Below are positions 13,845 to 52,745 of a stretch of 64,000 bases of DNA, piece by piece (position 1 is the stretch's first letter; each line of letters begins with the position of its first letter). This DNA comes from an uncultured delta proteobacterium (lineage in GTDB: Bacteria; Myxococcota; UBA727; VGSZ01), in assembly GCA_963775425.1 (NCBI GenBank), contig CAVZJB010000016.1, positions 800,001 to 864,000 of the forward strand. Direction: 5' to 3'. Made by a program: the position numbers and the translations under genes. Under the pieces are notes generated by a model that saw only the letters and a program-made list of their open reading frames with translations, searched no databases and was not told where the DNA came from.

Positions 13845-14027
13845 AGCGGCTCTCCCCGAGCATGACGACCTTGAAGGTGTTGCCGCAGTAGTAGCAGAGC
13901 ACCTCGCTGCCGCCGCGAAAGCCGTCCGGGTAGGGGTTGTTGGCGTTGCAGTCGGGGCAGTCGAATTCATCGAACGCCTTGCCCTGGGGGGCGGGGCTGT
14001 CGTCGTCGTCGAAGTTGAAGTCGACCA

Positions 14028-14028
<1 letters not shown>
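13825..14028 (-). CDS. Small acidic zinc-ribbon protein (67 aa)
   Basis: ATG at 14028 overlaps the kinase stop (TGATG). Sequence MVDFNFDDDDSPAPQGKAFDEFDCPDCNANNPYPDGFRGGSEVLCYYCGNTFKVV; buried at the end of the spurious 2193-aa ORF. Confidence 0.8.
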
Positions 14029-17120
<3,092 letters not shown>

Positions 17121-18441: not shown

Positions 18442-20793
18442 ATGAAACACGCCTTTGTCGTCGGCGGCGTGATCGTCGCCTGTGCTTCTTCGGGTTGTGG
18501 CGGCGGGCCTTCCCCGGCCGCGGACTTCGGCGACGGCGTCAGCGTGGAGCCGCTGCTCCTCGATCCGGGCACCGTGCCCGAGGCGCCGCGCGACGACACG
18601 CCGGCGGAGCCGCGCGACCGCACGGCCACCGTCAGCGGGATCGCCGTCGACGACGACGGCCGCCCCGTCGCAGACGCCGGCGTCACCGTCAACGGCGTGG
18701 CGACGCGGACCGACCGCGGCGGCGCGTGGAGCGCCACCGTCGTCGACGCCACGAGGATCATCGCGACCTTCGAGGAGGCGGGCTACGCGCCGGTCACGCA
18801 CGTCGGCGATCGCAGCCAGAGCGGCATCAAGGTGCAGATGCCGGCCGTCGAGCGCGTCGCGGTGGACGCGCCCTTGCGCGGCTTCACGGTGCGCGAGTCG
18901 CGCCACGGCTCGAGCGTGACGGTGCCGCCGAACGCGCTCGTCAGCGCGCGCGGCGCGCGGCCGACGGGGCGGGTGTGGGTCGAGCTGCACACGTATGACG
19001 TCGGGCGGATCGGCGCGCCGCAGCCGCCCGGCGACGGGGCGGCGATCGACGGGCGCGGCCAGGACGCCACCGTCGAGTCGATCGCGGCGCTCTCCATCGC
19101 CGTCCACGACGACGACGGCGTCGCCTACGACCTCGTGCGCGGCGTGCAGGCGAGCGCGCAGATCGGCGTGGCGGAGGAGATGAGGGGTGTCGCGGCGGAG
19201 AACACGCGCGCGGGGACATCGAGCTACGACGACGGGAGCGGGGCGTGGCGGTCGGGTGGGACCGTGGCTTTGTACGACGCGCGGAAGCTCGCGTACCTCG
19301 CGACGATCGAGTCGCTCGACGAGGTCTGGGACGTCGATCTGGTCCCGTACGCCACAGCGCCCGCCTGCCTCGGTGTTCGCATCGAGCGCGAGACCACCGT
19401 GGTCCCCGTCGTCGTCGCGCTCTACCGGTTCCGCTACAACTACGAGGACTGGAAATTCGTACGCTTCCTGGACTTCGACGACTACGACAAGCACGCGATC
19501 TACCGAATGGGGGAGAATCAGAGCTACAAATTCGAGGTCTATTCCGGCGACGCCGAGACGCTGCTGAGCTCGTGGACGGTGCAGACGGGAGCAGGACAGA
19601 GCGCCCCGTACCCACCCGTCTCGCAGTGTCAGAGCGCGGAGTTGGCGACCACCCACCCGCCGTGGCCGCAGTTCCTCTCGCTCCCGGACGCCGGTTCGAG
19701 CGCGAGCGCCGCGGCCTACTACGCGAGGATTGACCCGGCTTCCCTGCGCGCCTCGCTCTCTGCGTTCAAGGCGGTCAACGGCTTCTCGACGCAGAACCCC
19801 GGCGTCAACGCGGAGTTCTTCAACAAAAACGAGCTCGGCCTCGGCCGCGATCTCACCTGCGCCGCGAACGGCAACGGCAACTTCGCCTGCTATCTCCGGA
19901 AGTACGGGCACCCCGGAGAGACACCGAAGAAGGCGTTGCACGACATGTTCGCGAACGTCGATCCCGGGGACACGGTGGCGATGGAGTTCTCGGGGGTTCC
20001 CGGGAGGGGCATCGGCAACGTCGTGAAGTTCTATGTGTTCGCGCCGAGCGGGGTTCGCAAGCTCTCCACCGCCTTCGACCCGCAGGGCGAGAAGTTCGTC
20101 CCCAACGTGTGCACCGGCTGCCACGGGGGCACGCCGTCCGAGACCTACCCCGATCCCGCGAGCGCGGACATCGGCGCGGTCTTTGTCCCCGTGGATCCCT
20201 CCACCCACGTGTACTCGCCGGTGCGGCCGCGGACCGTACAGGAGGACGCCCTGCGCCAGATCAACGCCTGGGTCCACACGCAGACCAGGCCGGAGGCGGC
20301 GTCGGTCAAGGACTACGTCGAATCGATGTACCCGGACGGCGTCGACGCCCCGGGTTCCGTCGCCGCCGCCTTCGTCCCCAGGAGCTACGCGCTCGCGTTC
20401 AGACAATCGACGTACACGTCAATCATCAAGCCGTACTGCCAGCTCTGCCACCTGGCGCGCCCCGTCTTCGATTGGACCGACTATGGCAACTTGCAGGCGC
20501 ACGCGCCCGCCGTCCACGATTACACCTGCCCCACGCCCGGTTCCGGCCCGACGGTCATGCCGCATGCCTTCGTTCCGTTCCGGAACCTCTGGCAGGGCCC
20601 GCTCGGACGGCAGCGCGTCGACAAGCTCATGGCCGACATCGGCGCGCCGCTGTGCCCGGAGGAGCCGCACTCGGTTCTTCCTCCTTGCGACCCCAATGTC
20701 TGCAACGGCATGTGGACGTACTGCGTCGCCGAGGACTGCACCTACTGCAACTATTATTGCTCGGACGGGTATTGCATCGATCCTTGCTACTGA
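18442..20793 (+). CDS. Secreted lipoprotein with carboxypeptidase-regulatory-like domain and two c-type heme motifs
   Basis: Lipobox-like SSGC; VSGIAVDDDGRPVADAGVTV; CTGCH (20110-20124) and CQLCH (20437-20451); Cys-rich C-terminal tail. Confidence 0.75.
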   Translation: MKHAFVVGGVIVACASSGCGGGPSPAADFGDGVSVEPLLLDPGTVPEAPRDDTPAEPRDRTATVSGIAVDDDGRPVADAGVTVNGVATRTDRGGAWSATVVDATRIIATFEEAGYAPVTHVGDRSQSGIKVQMPAVERVAVDAPLRGFTVRESRHGSSVTVPPNALVSARGARPTGRVWVELHTYDVGRIGAPQPPGDGAAIDGRGQDATVESIAALSIAVHDDDGVAYDLVRGVQASAQIGVAEEMRGVAAENTRAGTSSYDDGSGAWRSGGTVALYDARKLAYLATIESLDEVWDVDLVPYATAPACLGVRIERETTVVPVVVALYRFRYNYEDWKFVRFLDFDDYDKHAIYRMGENQSYKFEVYSGDAETLLSSWTVQTGAGQSAPYPPVSQCQSAELATTHPPWPQFLSLPDAGSSASAAAYYARIDPASLRASLSAFKAVNGFSTQNPGVNAEFFNKNELGLGRDLTCAANGNGNFACYLRKYGHPGETPKKALHDMFANVDPGDTVAMEFSGVPGRGIGNVVKFYVFAPSGVRKLSTAFDPQGEKFVPNVCTGCHGGTPSETYPDPASADIGAVFVPVDPSTHVYSPVRPRTVQEDALRQINAWVHTQTRPEAASVKDYVESMYPDGVDAPGSVAAAFVPRSYALAFRQSTYTSIIKPYCQLCHLARPVFDWTDYGNLQAHAPAVHDYTCPTPGSGPTVMPHAFVPFRNLWQGPLGRQRVDKLMADIGAPLCPEEPHSVLPPCDPNVCNGMWTYCVAEDCTYCNYYCSDGYCIDPCY

Positions 20794-25908: not shown

Positions 25909-26373
25909 TCACGGCTGCGGCGTGATCGGGCGCGGCGTCGGTCCCTCCTGCGAGCCCTGGCCCGACGCGTCGGGGGCCTGCTCCTCGGGCGCCTGCTTGG
26001 GGGCCTGCGCCTCCGGGGCCTGCTCGGGGGCCTGCGCCTCGGGCGCCTGCTCCTCGGGCGTCTGCTCCTCGGGCGTCTGCTCCTCGGGCGTCTGCTCCTC
26101 GGGCGTCTTCTCCTCGGGCGTCGCGGCGCTCGAGCCGGTGCCGGTGCCGGCCTCAGGCGCCTTGTCCTCTTCCGGGTTGGTGATGCTCGAGCCGGCCCCG
26201 GTGCCGGGCGCGGGTTGCTCTTGCTTTGTGCCTTCGGGCGCAGGCTTTTCGGACTTCCCCGTCCAGTTCTGGCATGCGCCAAGCGCGAATGCGCCCGCCA
26301 CGATCGCCACCTGCGCCGTGGTCCTCACCAAGCCGTGCGCGGGGCGGAGATCAGAGAGTCTCTGGAATTTCAT
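25909..26373 (-). CDS. Low-complexity lipoprotein with TPEEQ/APE repeats
   Basis: ATG at 26373; lipobox ALGAC; 15-bp tandem coding repeats at about 25973-26121. Confidence 0.7.
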   Translation of the reverse strand: MKFQRLSDLRPAHGLVRTTAQVAIVAGAFALGACQNWTGKSEKPAPEGTKQEQPAPGTGAGSSITNPEEDKAPEAGTGTGSSAATPEEKTPEEQTPEEQTPEEQTPEEQAPEAQAPEQAPEAQAPKQAPEEQAPDASGQGSQEGPTPRPITPQP

Positions 26374-34810: not shown

Positions 34811-34853
34811 GCGCGCCGTTGTCGACCCCCTCGGGCTTGTGTACGTCGTGCGC

Positions 34854-35444
34854 ATGGCCCTCGCGTACCGCTCCCTCACCCCGCGCACCGTGGCCGCCGC
34901 CGCCGGCGCCGCCGTGGGCCTGGCCGCGGTGTTCGTGGACACGCTCGTCCCCGGGAGCCCGCTCGACGTCGTGAAGGACCCGCAGGCTCCCCTCGGAGAC
35001 CTGGTGAACGCCTGGCTGTTCGTGGTGGCGAGCGTCCTCGAGCTCGCCACCATGCTGTTGTGGATCTACGCGGGCGCGCGGAACCTGGTGGCGCTCCGCC
35101 GCGAGGCGCTCCGCTACACGCCGTTCACGTCGGTGGCGTGGTTCTTCATGCCCATCGCGAACCTGTGGATGGGCTACCGCGTGCTCGCCGAGATCTGGCG
35201 CGCGAGCGATCCGGAGGCGCGCGATCCGGCGGCGTGGGTCGAGACCAAGGCGCCGCTCAAGCTGCTCGCCTGGTGGCTCATCACCCTGTGCGGCGTCCTC
35301 GGCGACGACGGCCCCACCGCCGCCGGCTTCGTCGGCGTCGCGGTGAACGCGGTGTCCGCGGGGATGTTCGTGCTGCTCGCGTTCGAGCTGCGCGATCGCC
35401 AGGATGCGCTCGCCGCGCGCCTGTCGCGATCCTTCAGCGAGTGA
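34854..35444 (+). CDS. DUF4328 family membrane protein
   Basis: WIYAGARNL...VAWFFMPIANLWMGYRVLAEIWRAS...LAWW. Confidence 0.75.
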   Translation: MALAYRSLTPRTVAAAAGAAVGLAAVFVDTLVPGSPLDVVKDPQAPLGDLVNAWLFVVASVLELATMLLWIYAGARNLVALRREALRYTPFTSVAWFFMPIANLWMGYRVLAEIWRASDPEARDPAAWVETKAPLKLLAWWLITLCGVLGDDGPTAAGFVGVAVNAVSAGMFVLLAFELRDRQDALAARLSRSFSE

Positions 35445-36747
35445 CGTCGCCGGTGAAGCGCATGAGGTCGACGGCGGCGGCGTCGCAGCGGGCGCGGGCG
35501 TGCACGAGGCCGCGCTGGGCGCTGACGGCGCGCGCCTGCACCTCGGCGGCTCGGACCACGTCGGCCTGGCCGGCGTCGAGGGCGCGCTGCACGTCGGCGA
35601 GGCCCTCCTCGACAATCTCCTTCTGGCTGTCCTCGTAGAGCTTGACGAGCGCGGCGGCGCCCTGGAGGCGATCGAAGGCGCTGCGCACGTCGGCCTCGAG
35701 CTCGCGGGCGGCGTCGGCGTAGAGCGCGTCGATGCGTTGCTCGTCGATGGCGGCGGCGCGGCCGGTGTCGGAGAGCGGCTCGAGGAACGGCAGCGCGATC
35801 GAGAGGCGGGCGCGCACGCTGTTCTGCTTGTCGAGCGGCTCGTCGTAGTAGCCGACGAGCACGTCCTCGACGTACGGGGCCCAGGCCGCCCACGCGAGCG
35901 ACGCCTGGATGTGCGCGCGATCGCGGCGCGCCTTGAGGGCCTGCAGGCGGACCGACTGCGTGCGCGCGCGGCGCACGAGCGCGTTGACGTCGGCGGGCGC
36001 GCCCGCGCACAGCGGCGTCGCCGGCGGCGCCAGCGACAGGGGCGCCGCCCGGCCGACGAGCGCGGCGAGCCGGTGCTCGGCGCGATCCGCGTCGCTGCGC
36101 ACGTCCTCGACGTCGGCGGCCGCGTCGAGGCGGCGAAGCGCGACGAAGCGGGCGTCGAGCGCCGTGGCCGCCTCCGCCTGCAGTTGCGCCTGCGTCTGCT
36201 TTTCGAGCCGCGCCGCGATCGCGAGCGCGTTTTCGGCCAGGCGCTCTTCCCCCCGCAGCGCGAGCACCTGGGCGTGCAGGGTGCGCACCTCGGCGGCGAG
36301 GTCGCGCTCGCGATCGACGACGTCGAGGTCGTCGGCCTGGGCCGCGGCGTCGTCGGCGAGGAGATCGGTGAGCTCCGCGGGGTTCGGGGGCTTCCAGTCG
36401 AGGGTGATGAAGGTGTCGTCGAGCACGCCGTAGGCGTTGCCGTTGTTGTCGGTGTGGGGCGTGCCGAAGAGACCATCGGCGCTGCGGTCGCCGACTCGAA
36501 GGCGAAACGGCGCGTACGACAAACCGCGCCGGAGCTTGTCGCGCTCGGCGCCGAGCCTCGCCGCCTGTACGGCCCCGCTGCGCTGGAGCGCGAGGCGCAC
36601 GGCGTCGTCGGGTGTGAGCCCCGCGCGGGGGGGTGCCGGTCCCGAGGGGGCCGGCGCCGGCGACGAGGACGCGGCCGTTGGAGCGGCCGGGCCGGCCGCG
36701 CCCCACGACGACAGGACGAGCCAGAGCGCCGCTGCCGGGAGCGTCAT
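35434..36747 (-). CDS. TolC family outer-membrane efflux protein
   Basis: Signal peptide; LTPDDAVRLAL; two helical repeats with LSIALP beta-strand; GQADVV...LMRFTG C-terminus. ATG overlaps the HlyD stop (ATGA). Confidence 0.8.
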   Translation of the reverse strand: MTLPAAALWLVLSSWGAAGPAAPTAASSSPAPAPSGPAPPRAGLTPDDAVRLALQRSGAVQAARLGAERDKLRRGLSYAPFRLRVGDRSADGLFGTPHTDNNGNAYGVLDDTFITLDWKPPNPAELTDLLADDAAAQADDLDVVDRERDLAAEVRTLHAQVLALRGEERLAENALAIAARLEKQTQAQLQAEAATALDARFVALRRLDAAADVEDVRSDADRAEHRLAALVGRAAPLSLAPPATPLCAGAPADVNALVRRARTQSVRLQALKARRDRAHIQASLAWAAWAPYVEDVLVGYYDEPLDKQNSVRARLSIALPFLEPLSDTGRAAAIDEQRIDALYADAARELEADVRSAFDRLQGAAALVKLYEDSQKEIVEEGLADVQRALDAGQADVVRAAEVQARAVSAQRGLVHARARCDAAAVDLMRFTGDVTR

Positions 36748-37877
36748 CGACGAAGCCCGACGACGGTTCCGGCGAACACGACGTCGAACGCCTGCCCCGG
36801 CAAGGGCGCCGGGAGCCCGTCCGCCGTCGACAGCGCGATGTAGATGGCGCGGCCGAACGTGGGCTGCGTGGGCACCACGCGAAAGCGCGGCGGCACCTCG
36901 GCGATCCCCGGCGCCAACGCCCGCACCACGCCCCGCCGCGGCGGCCCGCTCCGGTCCGACGGCCGCATGCTCACCTCGTCCCCGACGTGCACCCGCGGCG
37001 CGGCGCGCTCGTCGACGTACGCGACCACGCGCAGCGGGTGATCGTCGACGATGCTCACGAGCGCCTCGTCCTGCCGCGCCGTGTCCCCTTCGCTCACGAG
37101 CACGTCCGCCACCGACCCCGCAATCGGCGCCTTCAACACCAGGCTGCCCTTGAGGTTCTCGAGCTGCCGCACGCGCTCTTCCTGCGCCGCCACCTCCGCC
37201 CGCGCCGGCGCCACACGCTCCTCGAGCGGGCCCGCCTTCGCGTGCCCCTCCCGCCACGTCCCGAGGCAATCGTGGGTCGCCGCCTCGTGATCGCGGGCGG
37301 CCTTCAACAGGCCGTCGTACTCCGCCACCCGCTGCGCCAGCGACGCCCGGCGCAGCTTCAGCTCGTCGCGCTGCGCCGCCGACGCGAGCTTCTGCTCGAT
37401 GAGCTTGTCCTGCTTGGCCATCAGCTCGTCCAACTGCGTCAGCTCCGCGCGATCGCGCTTGGCCTCCGCCTCCAAAGCCGCGAGGTCCACGGTGGCGCTC
37501 TCCGCCTCCTGCGCCAGGCGCGCCGCGCTCTCGAGGTCGCTCCCCTGAAGATCCAGCTCACGCGCGACCGCGCCCGCCTTGGTGCGCTCGAGCTCCGCGC
37601 GCGCGATGGCGAGCTCGAAGTCGACGGACGCGGGATCGAGCTCCACCAGCGGATCGCCCGCGGCGACGACGTCACCGGGCCGCACCGCCACCTTCAACAC
37701 GCGCGCGGTGCGCGGCGCAGTCACCGACGCCTCCCGCACCTCCGCGCTCGCGGCCACCACGCCCACGGTGCCGATGCCCGGCGCCAGCACGAACACGACG
37801 ACGAGCACCGCCGCCCAGGCGATCCACGGAGACGCGCGCTTGATCCTCGGGTGCTTGCGCAGCGGATCAAAGCTCAA
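36744..37877 (-). CDS. HlyD/membrane-fusion periplasmic adaptor protein
   Basis: N-terminal TM; lipoyl halves VRPGDVVAAGDPLVELD and LKAPIAGSV..VSEGD flanking a long coiled-coil; beta-barrel AYVDE. Confidence 0.9.
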   Translation of the reverse strand: MSFDPLRKHPRIKRASPWIAWAAVLVVVFVLAPGIGTVGVVAASAEVREASVTAPRTARVLKVAVRPGDVVAAGDPLVELDPASVDFELAIARAELERTKAGAVARELDLQGSDLESAARLAQEAESATVDLAALEAEAKRDRAELTQLDELMAKQDKLIEQKLASAAQRDELKLRRASLAQRVAEYDGLLKAARDHEAATHDCLGTWREGHAKAGPLEERVAPARAEVAAQEERVRQLENLKGSLVLKAPIAGSVADVLVSEGDTARQDEALVSIVDDHPLRVVAYVDERAAPRVHVGDEVSMRPSDRSGPPRRGVVRALAPGIAEVPPRFRVVPTQPTFGRAIYIALSTADGLPAPLPGQAFDVVFAGTVVGLRR

Positions 37878-38547
37878 CCGTGGACTCCTGCATCGAGATC
37901 GCCACGTCCTGCGCCCCCGGCAGCGCCGACAGCGCGTGGATGAGCGCCTGCTCCTCGTCGAGCTTCTTGAACGAGAGCTGGTAGGCGAGCTCCATCTCGC
38001 TCCCCTGCGCGACCTCCCGCAGCGTCACCAGGGCGAAGCGTGTGCAGTGCGCGCGCAACACCTCCCGGAGCTTTTCGCCGGGCTCCTTCCCCGACGGCAG
38101 TCGCAGGCGCACGATGCCGTCGTACTGCCGCTGCGCGCCGAACCCCGTCAGGCGCAGCGTCGCGGCCACCGCGCAAAACAGCGTGGTGCCGACGACCCCG
38201 GTGGCGTAGTTGCCGGTGCCCGCGGCGATGCCGGACCCGAACGCCGCGAAGATGAACACCATGTCGAGCGGGTCGCGCAGGTTGGTACGGAACCGGATGA
38301 GCGCCAGCGTCCCGACGATGCCGATGCCGCGCGCGAGGCTGTTGCCGATGGCGAGCATCAACATCGCCGCCACGATGCCGCCGACGACGAGGGCCTGCAC
38401 GAAAGAGCGCGAGTACGACAAGCCGCGATAGGTCCACGCGTAGACCGCGCCGATGGTCTGGCTCATCAGGTACGCGACGAGGATCGACGCCACCGCCTGT
38501 CGCATGGTGGCGACGTCGAGAGCGCCGAGCTCGGTCCAGGTATCCAT
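37867..38547 (-). CDS. DUF4956 family membrane protein
   Basis: YRGLSYSRSFVQAL, IGNSLARGIGIVGTLALIRFRTNLRDPLD, C-terminal ACT-like domain. Confidence 0.9.
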   Translation of the reverse strand: MDTWTELGALDVATMRQAVASILVAYLMSQTIGAVYAWTYRGLSYSRSFVQALVVGGIVAAMLMLAIGNSLARGIGIVGTLALIRFRTNLRDPLDMVFIFAAFGSGIAAGTGNYATGVVGTTLFCAVAATLRLTGFGAQRQYDGIVRLRLPSGKEPGEKLREVLRAHCTRFALVTLREVAQGSEMELAYQLSFKKLDEEQALIHALSALPGAQDVAISMQESTVEL

Positions 38548-38612
38548 CGGTTCGCGGAGGAGAGCAGCCCCGCCTCCGATCCTCAAGTTACGCGCATCCA
38601 GCCGGTCCGCGA

Positions 38613-39395
38613 TCAGCCGGCGGCGACGGGCTCACGGCGCGCCGCGTCGAGGAGGGTGTCGCGGGCGTAGCTGCGCAGCACGCCGACGCCGTATTTGGAG
38701 AAGCCGCGGCGATCGAGCTCGAGCGTACGAAGCATGTGCACGATCCAACGCGGGACCTCGCGCTCGAACTTCACCTCGAGGAGCACCCGCGGATCGCTCT
38801 CGTCCATGGCGACGGGGTCGTCGGCGGCGCACCAGTGCGCGGGATCGCCCGCGAGGGTCCAGTCGCGGCAGCGCTGGAACTGGAGCCGGGAGTCGAAGGT
38901 CACGCGCGCGTAGCTCTCGGTGACGCCCTTATAGGCCTTGCGCTCGTAGCGCACGAGGAGGGCGGGCTCACAGCGGAAGCGGTCGCGGCGCGCACAGAAG
39001 TCGCGCTCGACGGCGGTGGTGCCCATCCCGCGCGCCCGCTCGAGCCACGCCTCCGGCGGGATCACGGCGCGGCGCTTGACGGTGATGTCCATGAGCTTCT
39101 GCTTCACCTCGAGGAACACCGGGCTGTCGCCCAGGCGCTCCCCGTAGCGCCGCACGCGCAGCTTGAAGCGCCGGCCGGTGCCGAGCTCCCACTCGCGCCA
39201 GAACGTGAGGCGAGGCGAGTCGAGGTAGAGGCTGGTGACGAGGTAGCGGCCGCCGGGCTCCTTCGCCGAGCTCTCGTCCTCGACGCAAAACGGCGCGATC
39301 AGCCGGTGCACCGCCTCCGCCTGCGCCAGCGTCAGCAGGAACTTGTGCTCGTAGCGCGGGGGGATGTCGTCGCCCGCCCCGCGCGCCTCGCTCAC
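38613..39395 (-). CDS. VTC-domain polyphosphate polymerase (CYTH/TTM superfamily)
   Basis: RYEHKF, SLYLDSP, KLRVRRYG, FLEVKQK, YERKAY, RVTFD, LLEVKF, FSKY. GTG overlaps the ferredoxin stop. Confidence 0.9.
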   Translation of the reverse strand: MSEARGAGDDIPPRYEHKFLLTLAQAEAVHRLIAPFCVEDESSAKEPGGRYLVTSLYLDSPRLTFWREWELGTGRRFKLRVRRYGERLGDSPVFLEVKQKLMDITVKRRAVIPPEAWLERARGMGTTAVERDFCARRDRFRCEPALLVRYERKAYKGVTESYARVTFDSRLQFQRCRDWTLAGDPAHWCAADDPVAMDESDPRVLLEVKFEREVPRWIVHMLRTLELDRRGFSKYGVGVLRSYARDTLLDAARREPVAAG

Positions 39396-39685
39396 GAGCC
39401 CTTCCGGAAGCGCGAGGGGAACCCCGCGGGGAAGGCCTTCTTCGGGTGCAGCCGTTGGGCGCGGCGCAGCAGCTCGACCTCGGGCTCTTCGCGATCGGGG
39501 TCGGGCAGGCACGCGTCCACGGGGCACACGCGGGCGCACGCTTCCTCGTCGTGGAACCCCACGCACTCGGTGCATCGCACCGGATTGATGACGTACAGCT
39601 GCTCCCCCGGCGAGATGGCGCTGTTCGGGCACGCCGGCTCGCACAGCCCGCAGTTGATGCAATCGTCGACGATGAGCGTGGCCAA
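39392..39685 (-). CDS. YfhL-type 2x[4Fe-4S] ferredoxin
   Basis: CINCGLCEPACP and CTECVGFHDEEACARVCPVDAC. Confidence 0.92.
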   Translation of the reverse strand: MATLIVDDCINCGLCEPACPNSAISPGEQLYVINPVRCTECVGFHDEEACARVCPVDACLPDPDREEPEVELLRRAQRLHPKKAFPAGFPSRFRKGS

Positions 39686-39749
39686 GGTCTCTGCTCCGGA
39701 GCCCTCACTGTACTGGCCCGGCGCGCCAAACGCATGCTAGAGACCGGCG

Positions 39750-41375
39750 GTGGTGCCCCCCGAGTACGAGCCGAGCCCGCTGTCCGCCCCCTGGTTCCGC
39801 GCCGTCCTGGTCGGCGTCGCCGCGGCGCTCGTCGGCCTGCTCGCGGGCCTCATCGTCGAGGCGTGGTGGGCCGCGGCCGTCGCCGCCGGCGCCGGCGCCC
39901 TCCTCGGCACCTGGGTGGTCCTCGCCATGCCGGCGCCGGAGGCGGAGCTGCTCGCCCGTTGGACCGAATACCTCCTCGATCACCCCCACGAGCGGGTCCC
40001 CGAGGGCCTGCCGGGGGTCCACGGCGCCCTGGCCCGCCGGATCAACTCGCTGATCGCCCGCGACGCGCCCCGGCCCGGGGCCCTCGTCCCGGCCACGCCG
40101 GCGGCGCCGGCCAAGAGCGAGGCGCCCAAACAGCCGACGGAGATCATCACGGTGCTCGCCGAGGCCCAGCGGCACGCACAGAACCAGGGCAGCTCCCTCG
40201 ACGACACCAGCGCCGCCATGGCCGAGATGGCGGCCACCGTGCGCACCATCGCGGCCAGCGTCGACTCGCTGGCCACGTCGGCGGAGGAGAGCGGCTCGAG
40301 CATCCTCGAGATGAGCGCCATCAACGACGAGATGGCGGAGAACATCCAGGAGCTCGCCGGCGCCATCGAGGAGACGGCGGCCTCCATCGAGCAGATGATC
40401 TACTCCATCAAAGAGGTCGCCAAGAACATCGAGGACCTCGCGTTGGCGGCGGAGCAGACGTCGACGTCGATGAACGAGATGGAGGCCTCCATCAACCACG
40501 TCGAGGAGAACGCCACGGCCACGGCGCGGCTGTCCGAGGACGTGATCCGCGACGCCGAGCGCGGCGCCGACGCCGTCAAGCGCACCCTGTTCGGCATCGA
40601 CGAGATCCGCCAGTCGTCCCGCACCGCAGGCGAGGTCATCCGGCAGCTCGGCGAGCGCATCGCCGCCATCGGCAACATCTTGAACGTCATCGACGACGTC
40701 GCCGAGCAGACCAACCTGCTGGCGCTCAACGCCGCCATCATCGCCGCGCAGGCCGGCGAGCACGGCCGCGGCTTCGCCGTCGTCGCCGACGAGATCAAGG
40801 ACCTCGCCGAGAGGACCGGCGCCTCCACCAAGGAGATCGCCGAGCTCATCCGCTCGGTGCAGGAGGAGTCGAGGAACGCCGTCACCGCCATCTCGCGCGG
40901 CGAGCGCAGCGTCGAGGCCGGCGTGAACCTCTCGCAGGCCGCGGAGGGCGCGCTCACGGAGATCGTGAGCTCGGCGGGCAAGGCCACGGAGATGGTGAAG
41001 GCCATCGCGCTCGCCACCGTGGAGCAATCCAAGGGCAGCAAGGTGGTGGCCGACGCCGTCGACCGCATCGCCCGCACCGTCCAGCAGGTGGCGGCGGCCA
41101 CGGCGGAGCAGGCGCGCGGCTCCGAGCAGATCATGCGCAGCACCGAACGCATGAAGACCCTGTCCACCCACGTGGAGCTGTCGTCGCAGGAGCAGTCCAA
41201 GGGCAGCAAGCAGATCGCAGGCGCCATCGAGCACATCAGCGAGATGGTGCGGCAGCTCCACCAGGCGCAATCCGAGCAGGCCCGCGGCAGCGAGCAGCTC
41301 CTGGCGGCGGTGGAGCAGCTCCGCTCGTCGCAATTCCGCCAGATCGAGATCCTCGAGCGCGTCGCCCGCCGGTAG
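39750..41375 (+). CDS. Methyl-accepting chemotaxis protein
   Basis: Two N-terminal TM helices; signalling hairpin [39 protein letters not shown]. Confidence 0.93.
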
Positions 41376-42039: not shown

Positions 42040-42885
42040 ATGGACGAGCGCGAGTACTCGTTGCTGGAGCACCTCACCGAGCTGCGCGGGCGGCTCGCCA
42101 AGGCGCTCATCGGCGTCGCCCTCGTCGCCGTCGCCGCCTTCGGCGTCTCCGATACGCTGCTCGAGGTCATCCGCGCGCCGATGCAGGTGGTGCTCGTCAA
42201 GCACTACGGGCCCACGGCGCACTTCGTCACCACGGGCGCCGCCGAATACTTCGTGTGCCAGATGAAGGCCGCCATCGTCGCCGGCATCTTCGTGGCGAGC
42301 CCATGGGTGCTCTACCAGATCTGGTCGTTCATCGCGCCCGGCCTGTACGAGCACGAGAAGAAGTACGTCGGGTGGTTCGTCGGCGCGGGCGCCTTCTGCT
42401 TCATCGGCGGCGCCGTCTTTTCGTACTTCATGGTCTTCCCGCAGATGTACGGGTTCTTCGTCTCCCAGCAGCCGGCGGACGTGCAGATGCTGCCGAGCCT
42501 CGACGAGAACTTCACGTTCACGCTGAAGCTGTTGGTCGCGTTCGGCGGCGTGTTCGAGACGCCGGTGGTGATCTTCATCCTGTCCATGGCAGGGATCATC
42601 GATCCCAGCACGCTCGGCAAGTACCGCCGCTACGTCGTCGTCGTCGCGTTCATCATCGGGGCCGTGCTCACGCCGTCGCCGGACATCTATTCGCAGTGCT
42701 TGATGGCGGGCCCGCTCCTGCTTTTGTACGAGATCGGGGTGCTCGTCTCGCGCATCACCGTGAAGATGAAGGGTCGTCCGCTCTCGCGGAAGGAGCGCGC
42801 CGCCGAGGAGGCCGCCAAGAAGGCCGGCACCGCCATCGTCCCCGCGGAGCCGCAGCCGCCGCCTGACGAGAAGCCGCCGCAGTGA
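42040..42885 (+). CDS. tatC: Twin-arginine translocase TatC
   Basis: LLEHLTELRGRL, YQIWSFIAPGLYEHEK, FETP, TPSPD, LLYE. Confidence 0.95.
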   Translation: MDEREYSLLEHLTELRGRLAKALIGVALVAVAAFGVSDTLLEVIRAPMQVVLVKHYGPTAHFVTTGAAEYFVCQMKAAIVAGIFVASPWVLYQIWSFIAPGLYEHEKKYVGWFVGAGAFCFIGGAVFSYFMVFPQMYGFFVSQQPADVQMLPSLDENFTFTLKLLVAFGGVFETPVVIFILSMAGIIDPSTLGKYRRYVVVVAFIIGAVLTPSPDIYSQCLMAGPLLLLYEIGVLVSRITVKMKGRPLSRKERAAEEAAKKAGTAIVPAEPQPPPDEKPPQ

Positions 42886-44438
42886 TCGGCCTCGTCGTCG
42901 CCGGGGCCCTCGCCGCCGGTGTCGTCGTCGACGCCACAGCCGCGGCCGAGACCCGCGCCACGGAGGCCGGCCCGACGTCCGCCACCGACACCGGCGGCGG
43001 CGGCCTGTTCGGTGCGCTCGTCCTGCGGCCGGGCCTCTCGGGCGCCGTCGAGCGCGGCGGCTTCGCGCTCGCGGCGTCGTACAGCCCGCAGCTCTCGATG
43101 GTCACGACCTCGCTCGCGCCGGCCATCCTCAACGCCGGCGACCTCCGCGCCGAGGTGCCGTTCGGACCGCGCTTTCGCCTGCGCGTCAACGCGGGCGGCT
43201 CCATCGGCGACCTCGACCCCGGCACCGCGCAGGGCGTGCTGTCGTCGAGCGCGGGCCTGCTCGCGCCGGTGGCCGCCCTCTCGTTCGCGAGCGCCAACGC
43301 GGGCGTGGGCGCGGCCGCGCGGCTGACCCGCACGGTCAGCCTCGACGTCGACGCCCGCGGCGCCGTCACGGGCTCCCCCGACGGCAGCGCGCTCATCGCG
43401 CCGTCCACATCGGGCGGCCTCGACGCGACGCTCGCGTGGCAAGCGTGGCGCACCGACGCGTTCACGGTCGGCGGCGAGGCCCGCTCGCTCGCGGTCGACG
43501 GGCGCGGCAGCGTCGTCGGCGGCGCACCCACCGTCGGCTGGCGCCACCAGCTCGGTCCGTCCTCCGGCGTCGACGCGCGCGCCGGCCTCGGCGCCGTCGC
43601 GCTCACCACCGGCGGCGCCGACGACGGCGTCTACGCCCTGCCCGCCTTCGCGGTGGCCGCGCACGCGCTCCTCGACGTCGCCGGCTCCCCCAAGCTCGAG
43701 GTGAACGGCGGGGCGGGGCTCGATCTCTCCAACGATCCGCTCGGCGCGCTCCTCGACGACCGGCTGAGCGCCAGCCTCGGGCTCGGCTTCCGGGCGACGC
43801 GCGAGATCTCGTTTCACGTCGACAGCGCGGGCTTCTGGTCCGTCTTCTCCGTGAACCCGCCGCGCAAGGTGAACGGCGTCGACATCGAAAACCCCGTCTC
43901 CACCGCGCTCGTCGCCAACCGCGGGAGCATCTCGTGGGAATTCACCGACGGCGCGTCCCTCGAGCTGTCGGCGCTCAGCACCACGCGTCTCGTCGGCAGC
44001 TTCCTCGCCACCGACGCCACCGTCGGCCTGAGCGTCAACGGCACCATCCCCGTCTTTCACGCAGGCGACCGCCCGGAGGGCTCCGATCCTCGAGCCGGCC
44101 GCGACATCGGCGTCGAGCGCGTGGCCGCGCCGCCGCCGCCGGGCTCGACCACCATCGAGGCGCCGCCCCCGTTGCCCGAGGTGCCCGAGGAGCCCCCGGT
44201 TCCCCCGGCGCTCGCGGCGCCGCCGCCGAACATCCCCATCCTCGAGGCGCCGCTCAACCTGCCGAGCCTCCACGAAGGAAACGACAAGCTGCGCGACGCG
44301 AGCAAGGCCGCGGACGACAAGCGCGACAAGAAGAAGCGCGACAAGAAGAAGCACGCGGGCGACAAGGCGCTGGGCCTCGACGACACCGCCCCCGCCCCCG
44401 TCGCGCCCAAGGACCCGCAGCCGGCCGCGACCCCCTGA
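42882..44438 (+). CDS. Hypothetical secreted protein, probable outer-membrane beta-barrel with Pro/Lys-rich tail
   Basis: GTG overlaps the tatC stop; signal-like N-terminus; alternating hydrophobic, Gly-rich strands. Confidence 0.6.
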   Translation: MIGLVVAGALAAGVVVDATAAAETRATEAGPTSATDTGGGGLFGALVLRPGLSGAVERGGFALAASYSPQLSMVTTSLAPAILNAGDLRAEVPFGPRFRLRVNAGGSIGDLDPGTAQGVLSSSAGLLAPVAALSFASANAGVGAAARLTRTVSLDVDARGAVTGSPDGSALIAPSTSGGLDATLAWQAWRTDAFTVGGEARSLAVDGRGSVVGGAPTVGWRHQLGPSSGVDARAGLGAVALTTGGADDGVYALPAFAVAAHALLDVAGSPKLEVNGGAGLDLSNDPLGALLDDRLSASLGLGFRATREISFHVDSAGFWSVFSVNPPRKVNGVDIENPVSTALVANRGSISWEFTDGASLELSALSTTRLVGSFLATDATVGLSVNGTIPVFHAGDRPEGSDPRAGRDIGVERVAAPPPPGSTTIEAPPPLPEVPEEPPVPPALAAPPPNIPILEAPLNLPSLHEGNDKLRDASKAADDKRDKKKRDKKKHAGDKALGLDDTAPAPVAPKDPQPAATP

Positions 44439-50020: not shown

Positions 50021-52240
50021 ATGGCCGAACCCACCCGCGCCCTCCTCGAACGCTTCTCGGATTCGCTCTCCAGCGAGCACCGCGCCCGGCGGAGCATCTT
50101 GTCGTTCGAGGAGTACCTCGACGACGTCTACGAGCACCCCCGCCGCCACCTGAGGAACGCCGCCCAGTACCTGATGGACGTCGTGGACCACTTCGGCAGT
50201 GAAGAGGTCACGCTGCCCACGGGCAAGTTCGTCCGCCACAAGCTCTTCGACGCCGCCTTCGACGACGGCCGCGGGCGCGTCGCCGGCCAGGAGCGCGTGC
50301 AGCAGCAGATCGTGCGCGTCCTCGAGAACTTCGTGCGCTCCGGCCGCATCGATCGCCTGGTGCTCCTCCACGGGCCGAACGGCTCCGCCAAGACCAGCAT
50401 CATCCAGGCGTTCACCCGCGCCTCCGAGGTCTATTCGAGCACCGAGGAGGGCACGCTGTACCGCTTCAACTGGGTGTTCCCGACGGGCCAGGTCTCCAAG
50501 GGCACGCTCGGCTTCGGCGGCGGCGCCTCCCGCACGTCGGGCAGCTACGCGCACCTCGCGGCGGAGAACGTCGAGGCCCGCCTGCCCTGCGAGTTCAAGG
50601 ACCACCCGCTCTTGCTCCTGCCGCGCGAGGACCGCGCCCAGCTCTTCGCCGAGCTCCTGAAGGCCGACCGGGTCCCCCGCGACTGGGCCATCCCCGAGAT
50701 CCTCAAGGTGGGCGACCTCAGCGTCAAGAACCGCAAGATCTTCGACGCGCTGATGACGCACACGCAGGGCGACGTGCGCGAGGTGTTGCGCCACGTGCAG
50801 GTCGAGCGCTTCTACCTCTCGCGGCGCTACCGCACCGGCGTCGTCGCCGTGGAGCCGCAGATGAGCGTGGACGCGTACTCGCGCCAGGTCACCGCGGACC
50901 GCTCCTTGGCGATGCTGCCGGTGGCGCTGCAGCACCTCTCGCTGTTCGAGACGGCCGGCGCGCTCAACGACGCCAACCGCGGCGTCCTCGAGTTCAACGA
51001 CCTGCTCAAGCGGCCGCTCGACGCGTGGAAGTACCTCCTCGTCGCCACGGAGCAGGCGCAGGCCAGCCTCGACCACGTGAGCGTGTTCCTCGACGTGGTG
51101 ATGGTGGCGTCGTCCAACGAGCTGCACCTCGACGCCTTCAAGCAACACCCGGACTGGCCGAGCTTCAAGGGCCGCATGGAGCTCGTGACCGCCCCGTACC
51201 TCTTGCGCGTCGCCGACGAGATCAAGATCTACGAGGACCAGGTGCCGCGCGCGCTCACCGGCGTGCACATCGCGCCCCACGCCCTCGAGGTCGCCGCCCG
51301 TTGGGCCGTGCTCACGCGGCTCGAGCCGCCTGACCCCGACGCCTACCCCGAAGACGTCAAGCGCCTCGTGGGCGAGCTGTCGCCCATCGAGAAGATGCGC
51401 CTGTACGACAACGGCAGCGTGCCCGAGCGCCTCACCCAGAAGGAGCGCAAGGAGCTGCGCCAGGCGGCCTTCCTGCTGTACGACGAGCACGCCGCGCGCG
51501 ACGAGTACGAGGGCCGCTACGGTGCCAGCGCGCGCGAGGTGCGCACGGCGCTGTTGAACGCCGCGCAGGATCCGCACTTCGACCACCTGTCGCCCATCGC
51601 GGTCTTCGAGGAGCTGCGGACCCTGGTGCGGGCCAAGTCGACCTACGACTGGCTGCGCCGCGAGCCCACCCGCGGCTACCGCGACGCCTCGGACTTCGTG
51701 TCCATCGTCGAGGAGATGTACGTGAGGGACCTCGACGAGGAGATCCGCACCGCCATGGGCCTCGTGAAGGCCGGCAGCCACGTGGACATGTTCGGCCGCT
51801 ACATCCGCCACGTCTCGGCGTGGACCAAGCGCGAGAAGCTCCCGGACCCGGTCACCGGCAAGCTGGTGGAGCCGGACGCCGACTTGATGAAGCGCGTCGA
51901 GGACGTGCTCCTGCCGCCGCAGGAGTCACCCGAGGACTTCCGCCGCTCGCTCATCGGTCAGATTGGCGCGTACAAGCTCGAGCACCCCGACGACAACGTC
52001 GACTACGAGCTCTTGTTCGGCATGTACATGAAGCGCCTCAACGAGGACTTCTACAACCAGCGCAGAAAGGCCGTGCTCCGCCTCGAGCAATCCTTCTTCA
52101 AGGTGCTCGACGGCGACGACAAGGACATCGACGCCAAGGAGCGCGAGCAGGTGGAGACGTTCAGGAAGAGCCTCCACGCGCTCGGCTACAACGACGGCTC
52201 AGCGCGCAGCGCCATCGCGTTCCTCATGAGGCGCCGCTGA
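50021..52240 (+). CDS. prkA: PrkA/YeaG family AAA+ serine protein kinase
   Basis: LSFEEYL, LLHGPNGSAKTS (Walker A), EFKDHPL, GALNDANRGVLEFNDLLK, GRYGASARE. Confidence 0.88.
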   Translation: MAEPTRALLERFSDSLSSEHRARRSILSFEEYLDDVYEHPRRHLRNAAQYLMDVVDHFGSEEVTLPTGKFVRHKLFDAAFDDGRGRVAGQERVQQQIVRVLENFVRSGRIDRLVLLHGPNGSAKTSIIQAFTRASEVYSSTEEGTLYRFNWVFPTGQVSKGTLGFGGGASRTSGSYAHLAAENVEARLPCEFKDHPLLLLPREDRAQLFAELLKADRVPRDWAIPEILKVGDLSVKNRKIFDALMTHTQGDVREVLRHVQVERFYLSRRYRTGVVAVEPQMSVDAYSRQVTADRSLAMLPVALQHLSLFETAGALNDANRGVLEFNDLLKRPLDAWKYLLVATEQAQASLDHVSVFLDVVMVASSNELHLDAFKQHPDWPSFKGRMELVTAPYLLRVADEIKIYEDQVPRALTGVHIAPHALEVAARWAVLTRLEPPDPDAYPEDVKRLVGELSPIEKMRLYDNGSVPERLTQKERKELRQAAFLLYDEHAARDEYEGRYGASAREVRTALLNAAQDPHFDHLSPIAVFEELRTLVRAKSTYDWLRREPTRGYRDASDFVSIVEEMYVRDLDEEIRTAMGLVKAGSHVDMFGRYIRHVSAWTKREKLPDPVTGKLVEPDADLMKRVEDVLLPPQESPEDFRRSLIGQIGAYKLEHPDDNVDYELLFGMYMKRLNEDFYNQRRKAVLRLEQSFFKVLDGDDKDIDAKEREQVETFRKSLHALGYNDGSARSAIAFLMRRR

Positions 52241-52306: not shown

Positions 52307-52555
52307 TCAGGCGTGGCTCTCGTGCAGGCCTCGGCTCGCCGCTTTCGTCCCGGGAAGGAAGAACAGCGCTCCCACGCCGCAGACGCCGACGATCGCATAG
52401 ATCACGCGGCTGAGCGTGCTCGTCTCTTCGCGGGCGCCGCCGCCGAAGATCGCGTCGACCAGGTTGAAGTTGAAGAACCCGATCAGGCCCCAGTTGATCG
52501 CGCCGATGAGCGCGACGGCGACGACGATGATCCCGATGACGTTGGTGCTTTTCAT
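52307..52555 (-). CDS. DUF378 family membrane protein
   Basis: IGAINWGLIGFFNFNLVDAIFG...SRVIYAIVGVCG; GGAG RBS. Confidence 0.92.
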   Translation of the reverse strand: MKSTNVIGIIVVAVALIGAINWGLIGFFNFNLVDAIFGGGAREETSTLSRVIYAIVGVCGVGALFFLPGTKAASRGLHESHA

Positions 52556-52745
52556 GACGAATCTCCTCCGATTCTCTGAGGCGATCTCCTGCACGTTCCA
52601 TGCGAGAGCCCGGCTGCGCACGCGCATGTGCGAAGCCGCCGTGTCATCGACGTGCGGCTCACGGCTGAACGAAGCGACGGCGAGACACGAGTCACCGAGC
52701 GCCCGCTCTGGCGAACGTGCCTGCTACGCTCGGCTTGGGGGACCG

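Follow-up and report, generated by a model that had tools for sequence, protein, structure and literature searches.

In the yeast VTC complex (Vtc4/Vtc3/Vtc1), growth of a polyphosphate (polyP) chain is described as feeding a channel with a positively charged entrance (PMC9911596; bioRxiv 10.1101/2023.01.27.525886). Proteins with a VTC domain are also encoded in bacteria, and we have analyzed one such gene together with the three genes downstream of it in DNA from an uncultured delta proteobacterium placed in the Myxococcota (NCBI GenBank assembly GCA_963775425.1, contig CAVZJB010000016.1, positions 800,001 to 864,000 of the forward strand). This whole stretch of 64,000 nucleotides is referred to below as the window. 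The four genes encode a VTC-domain protein, a DUF4956 membrane protein, a HlyD-family periplasmic adaptor and a TolC-like channel of the OEP family. With the evidence close to evenly balanced, we favor the reading that they form one conserved envelope-spanning export module in which polyP synthesis drives the export.

The catalytic chemistry of Vtc4 provides the reference for the first gene. Triphosphate is bound by K200, R264, R266, K281, Y359, R361, S457 and K458 and Mn2+ by E426, all nine residues are reported to be required for polyP synthesis, and triphosphate has been seen bound in Vtc4 itself (bioRxiv 10.1101/2023.01.27.525886). According to the same report, K458 is the sole one of the nine that is altered in the inactive Vtc2 (Ile) and Vtc3 (Leu). 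The R264A/R266A/E426N form of Vtc4 is described as catalytically impaired (PMC9911596).

In bacteria, cotH, a polyP polymerase gene, DUF4956 and DUF4832 are reported to be contiguous with Gram-positive pel operons (PMC7112168). The S. intermedius genes are described as encoding an MgtC-like transmembrane (TM) domain with an ACT domain (SIR_1592), a polyP polymerase domain (SIR_1593) and a secreted CotH (SIR_1594), and mutants of SIR_1592 and SIR_1594 had altered Pel levels and reduced aggregation (PMC12345266). A DUF4956 gene is also listed beside a DUF2490 gene in Bacteroides thetaiotaomicron (BT3498-BT3499; PMC10434189). DUF2490, a putative barrel, may take the part of the OEP or porin in Bacteroidota. 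The literature searched, with most subscription journals outside the search, gave no description of a diderm version that combines VTC, DUF4956, HlyD and OEP, and neither a dedicated bacterial polyP exporter nor a function for bacterial VTC-domain proteins. The parts of PMC7356697 (Pontiella) and PMC10657179 that were available contain nothing on bacterial VTC loci.

The operon and its four proteins

Because the G+C content of the window is 72%, its genes (n = 52) were called from codon-position G+C and then checked with Pfam. The Pfam scan took in 49 of the 52 calls, leaving out 13825-14028, 25909-26373 and 52307-52627. The module lies on the minus strand and consists of the VTC gene (38613-39395, 260 aa, GTG start), the DUF4956 gene (37867-38547, 226 aa), the HlyD gene (36744-37877, 377 aa) and the OEP gene (35434-36747, 437 aa, ATG start), all of which clear the curated Pfam cut-offs. 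An earlier note, made from the sequence alone, had described four co-directional genes with a gap of 65 bp between the VTC stop and the DUF4956 ATG and with overlaps of 11 bp between DUF4956 and HlyD (37867-37877) and 4 bp between HlyD and OEP (36744-36747). The gene calls and Pfam bear this out. For DUF4956, the ATG at 38547 gives 226 aa, the length of its closest homologues, and an alternative TTG is found at 38586. The unit is bounded by a divergent methyl-accepting chemotaxis protein (MCP) gene (39750-41375) and a convergent DUF4328 gene (34839-35444). The note had also found no pump in the operon. Pfam agrees, since neither the operon nor any other of the 49 scanned window proteins matches an ABC, RND or MFS family, and the only transporter found in the scanned genes is an NhaA antiporter at 12498-13844.

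The first protein is soluble, Vtc4-like and a putative polyP polymerase. It matches Pfam VTC (PF09359; E 5.5e-33, 114.9 bits, cut-off 23), and the match takes in 232 of the 235 model positions. A PDB search with the single sequence gave nothing useful, and an orthologue profile was needed for a match: built from 41 orthologues, it matched the catalytic domain of Vtc4 (3g3q) at E 1.2e-17, compared with 1.4e-9 for Vtc2 and about 1e-7 for Vtc3. The profile alignment was mapped onto native Vtc4 numbering, and the offset was checked by the correct placing of R264 and R266. All nine Vtc4 residues have an equivalent in the window protein, namely K18, R80, R82, K98, Y150, R152, S233 and K234 together with E207. 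Eight of these are kept in all 41 orthologues, including K234, the equivalent of K458, and the ninth, S233 (S457 in Vtc4), is S in 31 and C in 10 of the 41. Additionally, E16 is invariant among the bacterial VTC proteins, at a position where Vtc4 has T198. The motifs that had been listed as intact are all present (E16-x-K18, R80-x-R82-x-Y84, E96-x-K98, E207-x-K209 and F232-S-K-Y235). Neither an SPX domain nor a Vtc1-type TM domain was found by Pfam on this protein or elsewhere among the 49 scanned window proteins.

The DUF4956 protein is the candidate inner-membrane component. It matches Pfam PF16316 (E 1.4e-11, 44.9-45.1 bits against a cut-off of 30.6) and belongs to a large family, with 1182 near relatives and 4668 clusters at 50% identity (E <= 1e-3). 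The AlphaFold2 model, made from an alignment of 69 diverse sequences and with a predicted local distance difference test (pLDDT) score of 91.2, contains five helices (12-39, 47-67, 71-87, 93-110 and 114-134) followed by an ACT-like beta-alpha-beta-beta-alpha-beta domain (residues 144-219). In a Foldseek search of the PDB, this C-terminal domain matches ACT folds and the C-terminal domain of MgtC (2lqj). Alignment of the DUF4956 profile with E. coli YhiD (hhalign) gave a probability of 95.6% and E 1.1e-8 over 162 columns, spanning both the TM helices and the C-terminal domain. Pfam MgtC (PF02308) stays under its cut-off on the window protein (E 0.9), and the nearest Atlas clusters outside DUF4956 are MgtC, with scores of 0.76-0.78 that serve as a lead only. 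Judged by profile comparison, DUF4956 is a remote homologue of MgtC/YhiD and not a member by the curated Pfam model.

The most conserved feature of DUF4956 is R85-F-R87 with D92 and D95, placed between helices 3 and 4, where R85 is kept in 68 and R87 in all of the 69 sequences. The RFRTNLRDP motif is specific to DUF4956. If the topology is read from the five TM helices of the model and the positive-inside rule, the R85-F-R87 loop and the ACT-like domain would face the cytoplasm, the side of VTC and ATP. Four TM segments have been predicted for the S. intermedius DUF4956 homologue (PMC12345266). At the top of the Foldseek list for the whole model stand a CusA-type pump and SecDF, with TM-scores of 0.25-0.29, and these were not used. 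Two longer proteins that match DUF4956 were also set aside. In P0270, a metagenome protein of 512 aa that by Pfam resembles a DUF4956-HlyD fusion, the alignment with DUF4956 ends halfway through the ACT-like domain, and about 70 unrelated residues follow before HlyD resumes. This broken alignment, in a lone sequence on a 2-kb contig, makes a frameshift or gene-call artefact the most likely explanation. In P0271, DUF4956 is joined to a glycosyl-hydrolase-like region, and the protein was rejected as an informative fusion.

The adaptor matches Pfam HlyD_3 (E 1e-17) and HlyD_D23 (E 2.2e-13). Its AlphaFold2 model (pLDDT 93.4) shows one TM helix (10-36), a long alpha-hairpin whose helices (83-161 and 167-244) each measure about 78 residues, and lipoyl and beta-barrel domains. 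The best fold match in the PDB is EmrA (4tko, E 5e-19), followed by EmrAB-TolC (8zal/8zar), and MacA, MexA and AcrA rank behind it among 74 matches at E <= 1e-3 (Foldseek). By fold, the modelled adaptor is nearest to EmrA, a type of adaptor that works with partners embedded in the membrane. None of the NCBIfam adaptor models reaches its cut-off on the window HlyD, with type_I_hlyD (TIGR01843) at 48.4 bits where 208.65 would be needed. In the C-terminal motif, R343 is invariant and R331 nearly invariant. A longer form of HlyD, of about 690 aa with an extra C-terminal domain of about 300 aa, is found in 25 loci (e.g., L014:10630-12708), mostly in those with the gene order DUF4956-HlyD-OEP-VTC. 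The extra domain is a separate gene only in L011, and the window HlyD is without the extension. The Atlas clusters nearest to this domain are DUF3616, DUF6929, DUF6910 and 'Phytase-like', with scores of 0.87-0.89, again a lead only.

The outer-membrane channel matches Pfam OEP (PF02321, E 2.4e-16) in two stretches, and its N-terminus, judged by eye, resembles a signal peptide. As for VTC, a PDB search with the single sequence gave nothing useful and an orthologue profile was needed. The profile of 32 orthologues matches SilC, CusC, OprJ, MtrE, OprM and TolC, with E values from 1.2e-18 to 2e-8, and the match runs near end to end (positions about 42-417 of 424).

Conservation and surroundings of the gene set

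Species-representative genomes were scanned with an alignment of close DUF4956 relatives, which gave 257 stretches, 225 of them encoding a relative. The best 80 of these 225 (L001-L080, with 39-70% DUF4956 identity) were surveyed; open reading frames (ORFs) were called mechanically and searched with the window proteins and then with iterated local hidden Markov models (HMMs). The 80 loci span at least 11 diderm phyla. By label, they include Myxococcota/'Deltaproteobacteria' (19), the PVC group (18), Acidobacteriota (10), KSB1 (4), Marinisomatota (4), Latescibacterota (2), Calditrichota (2), Proteobacteria (2), and Ignavibacteria, Cytophagia and Gemmatimonas (1 each).

On the DUF4956 strand, HlyD is present in 75, VTC in 74 and OEP in 63 of the 80 loci. 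If the genes are abbreviated as V (VTC), D (DUF4956), H (HlyD) and O (OEP), the architectures are VDHO (32), VDHOO (1), VDHOH (1), DHOV (25), VDH (9), VD (5), DHO (4), DH (2) and DHV (1). Many of the partial architectures stop at a contig edge, and loci were considered assessable when they had enough flanking sequence before the contig ended. The HlyD gene comes directly after DUF4956 in 68/71 assessable loci, OEP follows HlyD in 56/61, and all four genes are found in 43/51. Therefore, the operon arrangement in the window is not a chance adjacency. The earlier note had staked its export reading on HlyD and TolC being conserved beside VTC-DUF4956, and this is what the survey finds.

The genes are also closely spaced. 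A candidate HlyD start lies -11 to +25 nt from the DUF4956 stop in 72/75 loci and an OEP start -35 to +17 nt from the HlyD stop in 58/62, by a measure that takes the start nearest the stop and hence is biased to small gaps. Three loci have no HlyD start near the DUF4956 stop (L038, L063 and L071). In the KSB1 locus L038, a gene for a 681-aa lamin-tail-domain (LTD) protein (L038:10872-12917) sits between DUF4956 and HlyD.

The DUF4956-then-HlyD order is constant in both VDHO and DHOV. In the DUF4956 tree, DHOV corresponds to one clade (31 rows), which a single rearrangement explains. Each of the four major clades of the DUF4956 tree corresponds to one branch of the HlyD tree (SH-aLRT 98-99). 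This agreement indicates co-inheritance of the DUF4956/HlyD pair, not strict co-evolution, because related sequences share labels. Three metagenome-assembled genomes (MAGs) labelled as Myxococcota (L037, L051 and L053) carry a DHOV-type module that groups with the KSB1, Marinisomatota and Calditrichota versions, apart from the Myxococcota clade of the window in both trees. This suggests either that the module was transferred as a whole or that the MAGs are mislabelled.

To describe the surroundings, every ORF no shorter than 90 aa and no more than 4 kb from the module was clustered across the 80 loci, and Pfam was run on the 89 nearest other flanking ORFs of the 59 loci with a complete module. 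Four of the 89 match ABC or MFS families, and no two of them are of the same kind: L012 has ABC_tran (next to another, separate HlyD gene), L041 has MacB/FtsX, L044 has MFS_2, and L071 has ABC-3 (on the opposite strand). RND families were found by Pfam in none of the 89. Hence, the pairing with an ABC transporter elsewhere that the earlier note had named as a possible objection did not appear, as no canonical pump recurs beside the module in the 80 loci. Adaptor genes are normally encoded with their inner-membrane partner. Since no pump recurs, DUF4956 holds the slot of the inner-membrane partner gene beside the adaptor.

The only flanking family found in more than 7 of the 80 loci is CotH/LTD. 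CotH is present in 24, LTD in 35 and either in 40 of the 80, and in 37/80 such a gene lies on the same strand within 1.5 kb. The proteins range from about 180 aa with a single LTD up to 2000-2600 aa with PA14, PKD and Fn3-associated domains. Their N-termini, judged by eye, resemble signal peptides or lipoboxes, and some proteins have a type IX secretion system (T9SS) sorting tail; CotH/LTD proteins thus have export routes of their own. The earlier note had remarked that VTC-DUF4956 pairs often occur with CotH kinases and that the window has none. The local HMMs confirm that neither a CotH nor an LTD gene is present in the window, but the association is not incidental, given its recurrence in half of the related diderm loci. 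The recurrent neighbors therefore change the probable purpose of the exported product.

The same comparison was extended to monoderms with four records obtained by tblastn with VTC on a plasmid collection, whose ORFs were annotated with Pfam and the local HMMs. All four records are monoderm (Paenibacillus, Nonomuraea, Acetoanaerobium and Enterococcus). DUF4956 directly follows VTC in all of them, CotH is present in two, and HlyD, OEP and LTD are found in none. The comparison of diderm and monoderm neighborhoods proposed in the earlier note thus came out as expected for an envelope-spanning duct, within a monoderm sample of n = 4 only: HlyD and OEP accompany the pair in most assessable diderm loci and are absent from all four monoderm loci.

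One acidobacterial locus replaces the duct with another channel. In L022 (10693-15187), a phosphate-selective porin O/P (PF07396, E 2.3e-34) follows DUF4956 in the place of HlyD and OEP, and downstream of it are a CotH gene, then a purple-acid-phosphatase-like/metallophosphoesterase gene and, further on, an Omp85 gene. It looks as if the porin gives the same product another way across the outer membrane, and a channel selective for phosphate anions at the position of the duct is to be expected if the cargo is a phosphate polymer. L022 is a single case, as this porin was found in no other of the 80 loci.

Other neighbors recur at lower frequency. PPDK_N-domain proteins (PEP/pyruvate-dikinase ATP-binding) lie beside the module in five Myxococcota loci (L010, L017, L033, L036 and L058, the last a MAG labelled Anaeromyxobacter), and in Nonomuraea (L082:10050-11944) such a protein, with PEP-utilizer and histidine-phosphatase domains, lies beside CotH. 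These proteins may be a further phosphotransfer component. Members of the Cthe_2159 family (carbohydrate-binding, beta-helix) are encoded directly upstream of the module in L014 (8046-9845), L052 (7937-9781) and L071 (7095-8984) and directly after DUF4956 in Paenibacillus (L081:8482-10380). An OmpR-type response regulator and a histidine kinase adjoin VTC-DUF4956 in three of the four monoderm loci (L081, L083 and L084), and TPR-histidine kinases recur in 7/80 diderm loci.

In the window itself, the transcription order is ferredoxin, VTC, DUF4956, HlyD and OEP. The first gene encodes a YfhL-family 4Fe-4S dicluster ferredoxin (39392-39685, minus strand, 97 aa; NCBIfam NF033683, 103.9 bits against a cut-off of 86), and its stop overlaps the VTC start by 4 bp. 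The ferredoxin is probably co-transcribed with the module. We rejected it as a module member, and it looks like a local passenger, because none of the 80 related loci carries a homologue. Between the ferredoxin and the MCP gene, the gene calls leave a divergent intergenic region of 64 bp (39686-39749), presumably the promoter region. A consensus scan of 35000-40000, uninformative at 72% G+C, gave neither a sigma-70-like site nor a minus-strand terminator-like site. Elsewhere in the window, five long ORFs have a strong codon-position G+C bias and no Pfam family at the thresholds used: 42882-44438, 59638-61338 and 18544-20793 on the plus strand, and 55188-57056 and 6753-8828 on the minus strand. 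A PrkA-type serine kinase (50021-52240, plus strand) and a 1030-aa Ser/Thr kinase with a PEGA domain (14028-17120, minus strand) are also encoded, and nothing ties either of them to the module.

Proposed export of a phosphate polymer and the alternatives

Given their conservation across phyla and through rearrangement, the four genes very probably act as one functional unit. If they do, this unit is likely to be an exporter in which DUF4956 is the inner-membrane component, in view of the adaptor type, the position of the gene, the absence of any pump and the fact that monoderms have lost HlyD and OEP. If the unit is an exporter, we consider it fairly likely that the cargo is polyP made by VTC, since the catalytic residues are intact including the K458 equivalent, a porin O/P gene stands in for the duct in L022, and no energy source other than polymer growth is evident. 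Of the polymerase-energized exporter proposed in the earlier note, the conserved gene set, the missing pump, the EmrA-type adaptor and the nine Vtc4 residues have held up, while polymerase activity, a DUF4956 pore, physical coupling among the parts, the polyP cargo, polymerization-driven export and the downstream use are what we infer from them.

In the proposed mechanism, the cytoplasmic VTC protein would build a polyP chain from ATP by the chemistry of yeast Vtc4. It would act at DUF4956, an MgtC-like helix bundle, where the chain would be taken up by the Arg-Phe-Arg loop and the ACT-like domain, the latter with a possible second role in regulation. The chain would then cross the inner membrane via DUF4956, which is probably oligomeric. 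From there, a duct formed by the EmrA-like adaptor and the TolC-family channel would lead it to the cell surface or into the medium. With no pump driven by ATP or proton motive force, the growing chain itself would push the polymer out, as in yeast VTC and the exopolysaccharide synthases. Outside the cell, the product would probably serve the secreted CotH-type kinases and LTD proteins that are encoded beside the module in many relatives.

Several observations weigh against this mechanism. The conserved tunnel residues alone would, as sequence features, fit a triphosphatase as well as a polymerase. The TM bundle of DUF4956 is without a solved counterpart, as the whole model has no PDB match at E <= 1e-3 (Foldseek); a five-helix monomer would be too small to form a pore alone; and the MgtC/YhiD kin of DUF4956 is a family described without a transporter role in the text available from PMC12345266. 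The gene set has exceptions, since L022, L070 and L078, all with full flanks, carry VTC-DUF4956 without HlyD and OEP, no OEP lies near the module in L061, L064, L069 and L080, and L005 is without VTC. Moreover, the survey covers the nearest 80 of 225 relatives in a family of 4668 clusters and is not family-wide. No genuine gene fusion was found among the longer proteins matching DUF4956 (two matches) or VTC, although for the fusion search with VTC such a blank is weak evidence. Finally, no CotH/LTD gene is present in the window or in its four closest relatives (L001, L002, L006 and L008, on short contigs).

The alternative that survives best, which we nevertheless find unlikely, is that VTC and DUF4956 are a membrane-associated pair for phosphate or energy homeostasis. 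PolyP would be made and kept inside the cell, DUF4956 would be an MgtC-like regulator, and HlyD and OEP would share the regulation of the pair but serve an unlinked pump. Outer-membrane factors do serve unlinked pumps, as TolC does in E. coli, and four Verrucomicrobiota loci are without a linked OEP gene. However, an unlinked pump does not readily explain why DUF4956 stays directly upstream of an adaptor gene through the rearrangement of gene order, why no pump recurs nearby, or why the monoderm loci drop exactly HlyD and OEP. The regulator role itself fits the remote homology to MgtC/YhiD and the ACT-like domain, and MgtC is reported to act on ATP synthase and PhoR (PMC12345266). Against a purely internal role, the secreted CotH/LTD neighbors point to an extracellular one.

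A second alternative keeps the export and changes the cargo, and it is also quite improbable in our judgment. Instead of long polyP, the module would export a short phosphate-rich molecule, such as tri- or tetrapolyphosphate, a nucleotide or another phosphorylated product made by VTC, as a donor for CotH kinases. Triphosphate-tunnel enzymes bind triphosphate moieties in general, in keeping with the triphosphate reported in Vtc4 (bioRxiv 10.1101/2023.01.27.525886), and the porin of L022 would also pass small phosphate anions. CotH/LTD is the one recurrent neighbor, and CotH persists in two of the four monoderm loci. Nevertheless, the lysine that marks the catalytic Vtc4 as opposed to Vtc2 and Vtc3 is kept in every orthologue aligned, and without the growth of a polymer the export would have no evident energy source when a pump is absent.

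It is very improbable that HlyD and OEP are a type-I-like secretion route for the CotH/LTD proteins, with VTC-DUF4956 assisting. HlyD and TolC are indeed the adaptor and channel of type I secretion, and large CotH/LTD proteins are encoded beside half of the surveyed modules, but these proteins have N-terminal signals or lipoboxes of their own and in some cases T9SS sorting domains, no ABC exporter recurs, the window has the module yet no CotH/LTD gene, and its HlyD falls far below the TIGR01843 cut-off. Chance placement of an adaptor/channel pair beside VTC-DUF4956 in this genome has a negligible probability, for although many HlyD/OEP pairs exist in Myxococcota genomes and the ferredoxin of the same operon is a local passenger, the complete set in 43/51 assessable loci from many phyla refutes it, and the DUF4956 and HlyD trees agree.

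Returning to polymer export as the preferred reading, the conserved four-gene set points, on sequence grounds, to a previously undescribed export route for a phosphate polymer. More tentatively, and with the balance tilted against it, the module may represent a fifth class of TolC-dependent tripartite machine, in which a Vtc4-like motor and an MgtC-like DUF4956 oligomer extrude polyP to the diderm surface as a phosphoryl donor or scaffold for CotH and LTD proteins, and which would exist as the same system without a duct in monoderms. If this were true, bacteria would phosphorylate extracellular substrates without ATP, which is a possible answer to how secreted CotH-type kinases work where ATP is absent. 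A polymer-driven member would then join the tripartite machines so far known with ABC, RND, MFS and PET pumps, and DUF4956, and by extension the MgtC superfamily, would gain a concrete and testable molecular role. The module would also be a bacterial counterpart of the eukaryotic VTC machine, with a bearing on the evolutionary origin of VTC. Since the module is widespread, with versions in Myxococcota, Acidobacteriota, the PVC group, KSB1, Marinisomatota, Latescibacterota, Calditrichota and others, surface or extracellular polyP made in this way could have consequences in soils and sediments, for the binding of metals, for the formation of minerals and for the cycling of phosphorus.

Comparison with known systems

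Of the MgtC/SapB/YhiD family, YhiD aligns with the DUF4956 profile over the TM helices and the C-terminal domain, and the C-terminal fold of DUF4956 matches 2lqj. The window protein differs in that Pfam MgtC stays under its cut-off, and in that the RFRTNLRDP motif and the genomic context belong to DUF4956. The Gram-positive pel-locus genes, as described in PMC7112168 and PMC12345266, contain the same VTC-DUF4956 pair with a secreted CotH, but their hosts are monoderm and no HlyD or OEP is reported with them.

The yeast VTC complex is like the module in its catalytic family, with the nine synthesis residues shared by the window protein, in an enzyme tied to a small multi-helix membrane protein, and in the proposed logic of chain growth that feeds a channel. 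In contrast, the window protein has neither an SPX domain nor a Vtc1-type TM domain, and the module is therefore not a member of the eukaryotic VTC complex. Its membrane partner is a separate, MgtC-like DUF4956 protein, and the proposed destination is the cell exterior, via an adaptor and an outer-membrane channel, and not the vacuole lumen.

EmrAB-TolC and other tripartite efflux systems share with the module a TM-anchored adaptor with hairpin, lipoyl and beta-barrel domains, a full-length outer-membrane factor (OMF) and overlapping genes. Tripartite systems of a membrane fusion protein (MFP) and an OMF also include the AaeAB/PET type. In the window, DUF4956 takes the inner-membrane slot instead of an ABC, RND, MFS or PET partner, which places the module outside the known tripartite classes, and the energy is presumed to come from a polymerase. 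Type I secretion is set apart as well by the lack of an ABC exporter, by an HlyD that scores under the type I equivalog cut-off and by the N-terminal signal-like sequences of the candidate substrates in the relatives.

Synthase-dependent exopolysaccharide secretion includes alginate (Alg8/Alg44/AlgK/AlgE), cellulose, Pel and PNAG, and the periplasmic domain of Alg44 is adaptor-like. By analogy, the module would resemble these systems in that a polymerase at the cytoplasmic face drives an anionic polymer through an inner-membrane part, a periplasmic scaffold and an outer channel without a pump. The proposed module would differ from them in exporting an inorganic polymer, in using a triphosphate-tunnel enzyme instead of a glycosyltransferase, and in ending in a TolC-type barrel instead of an AlgE- or PgaA-type porin.

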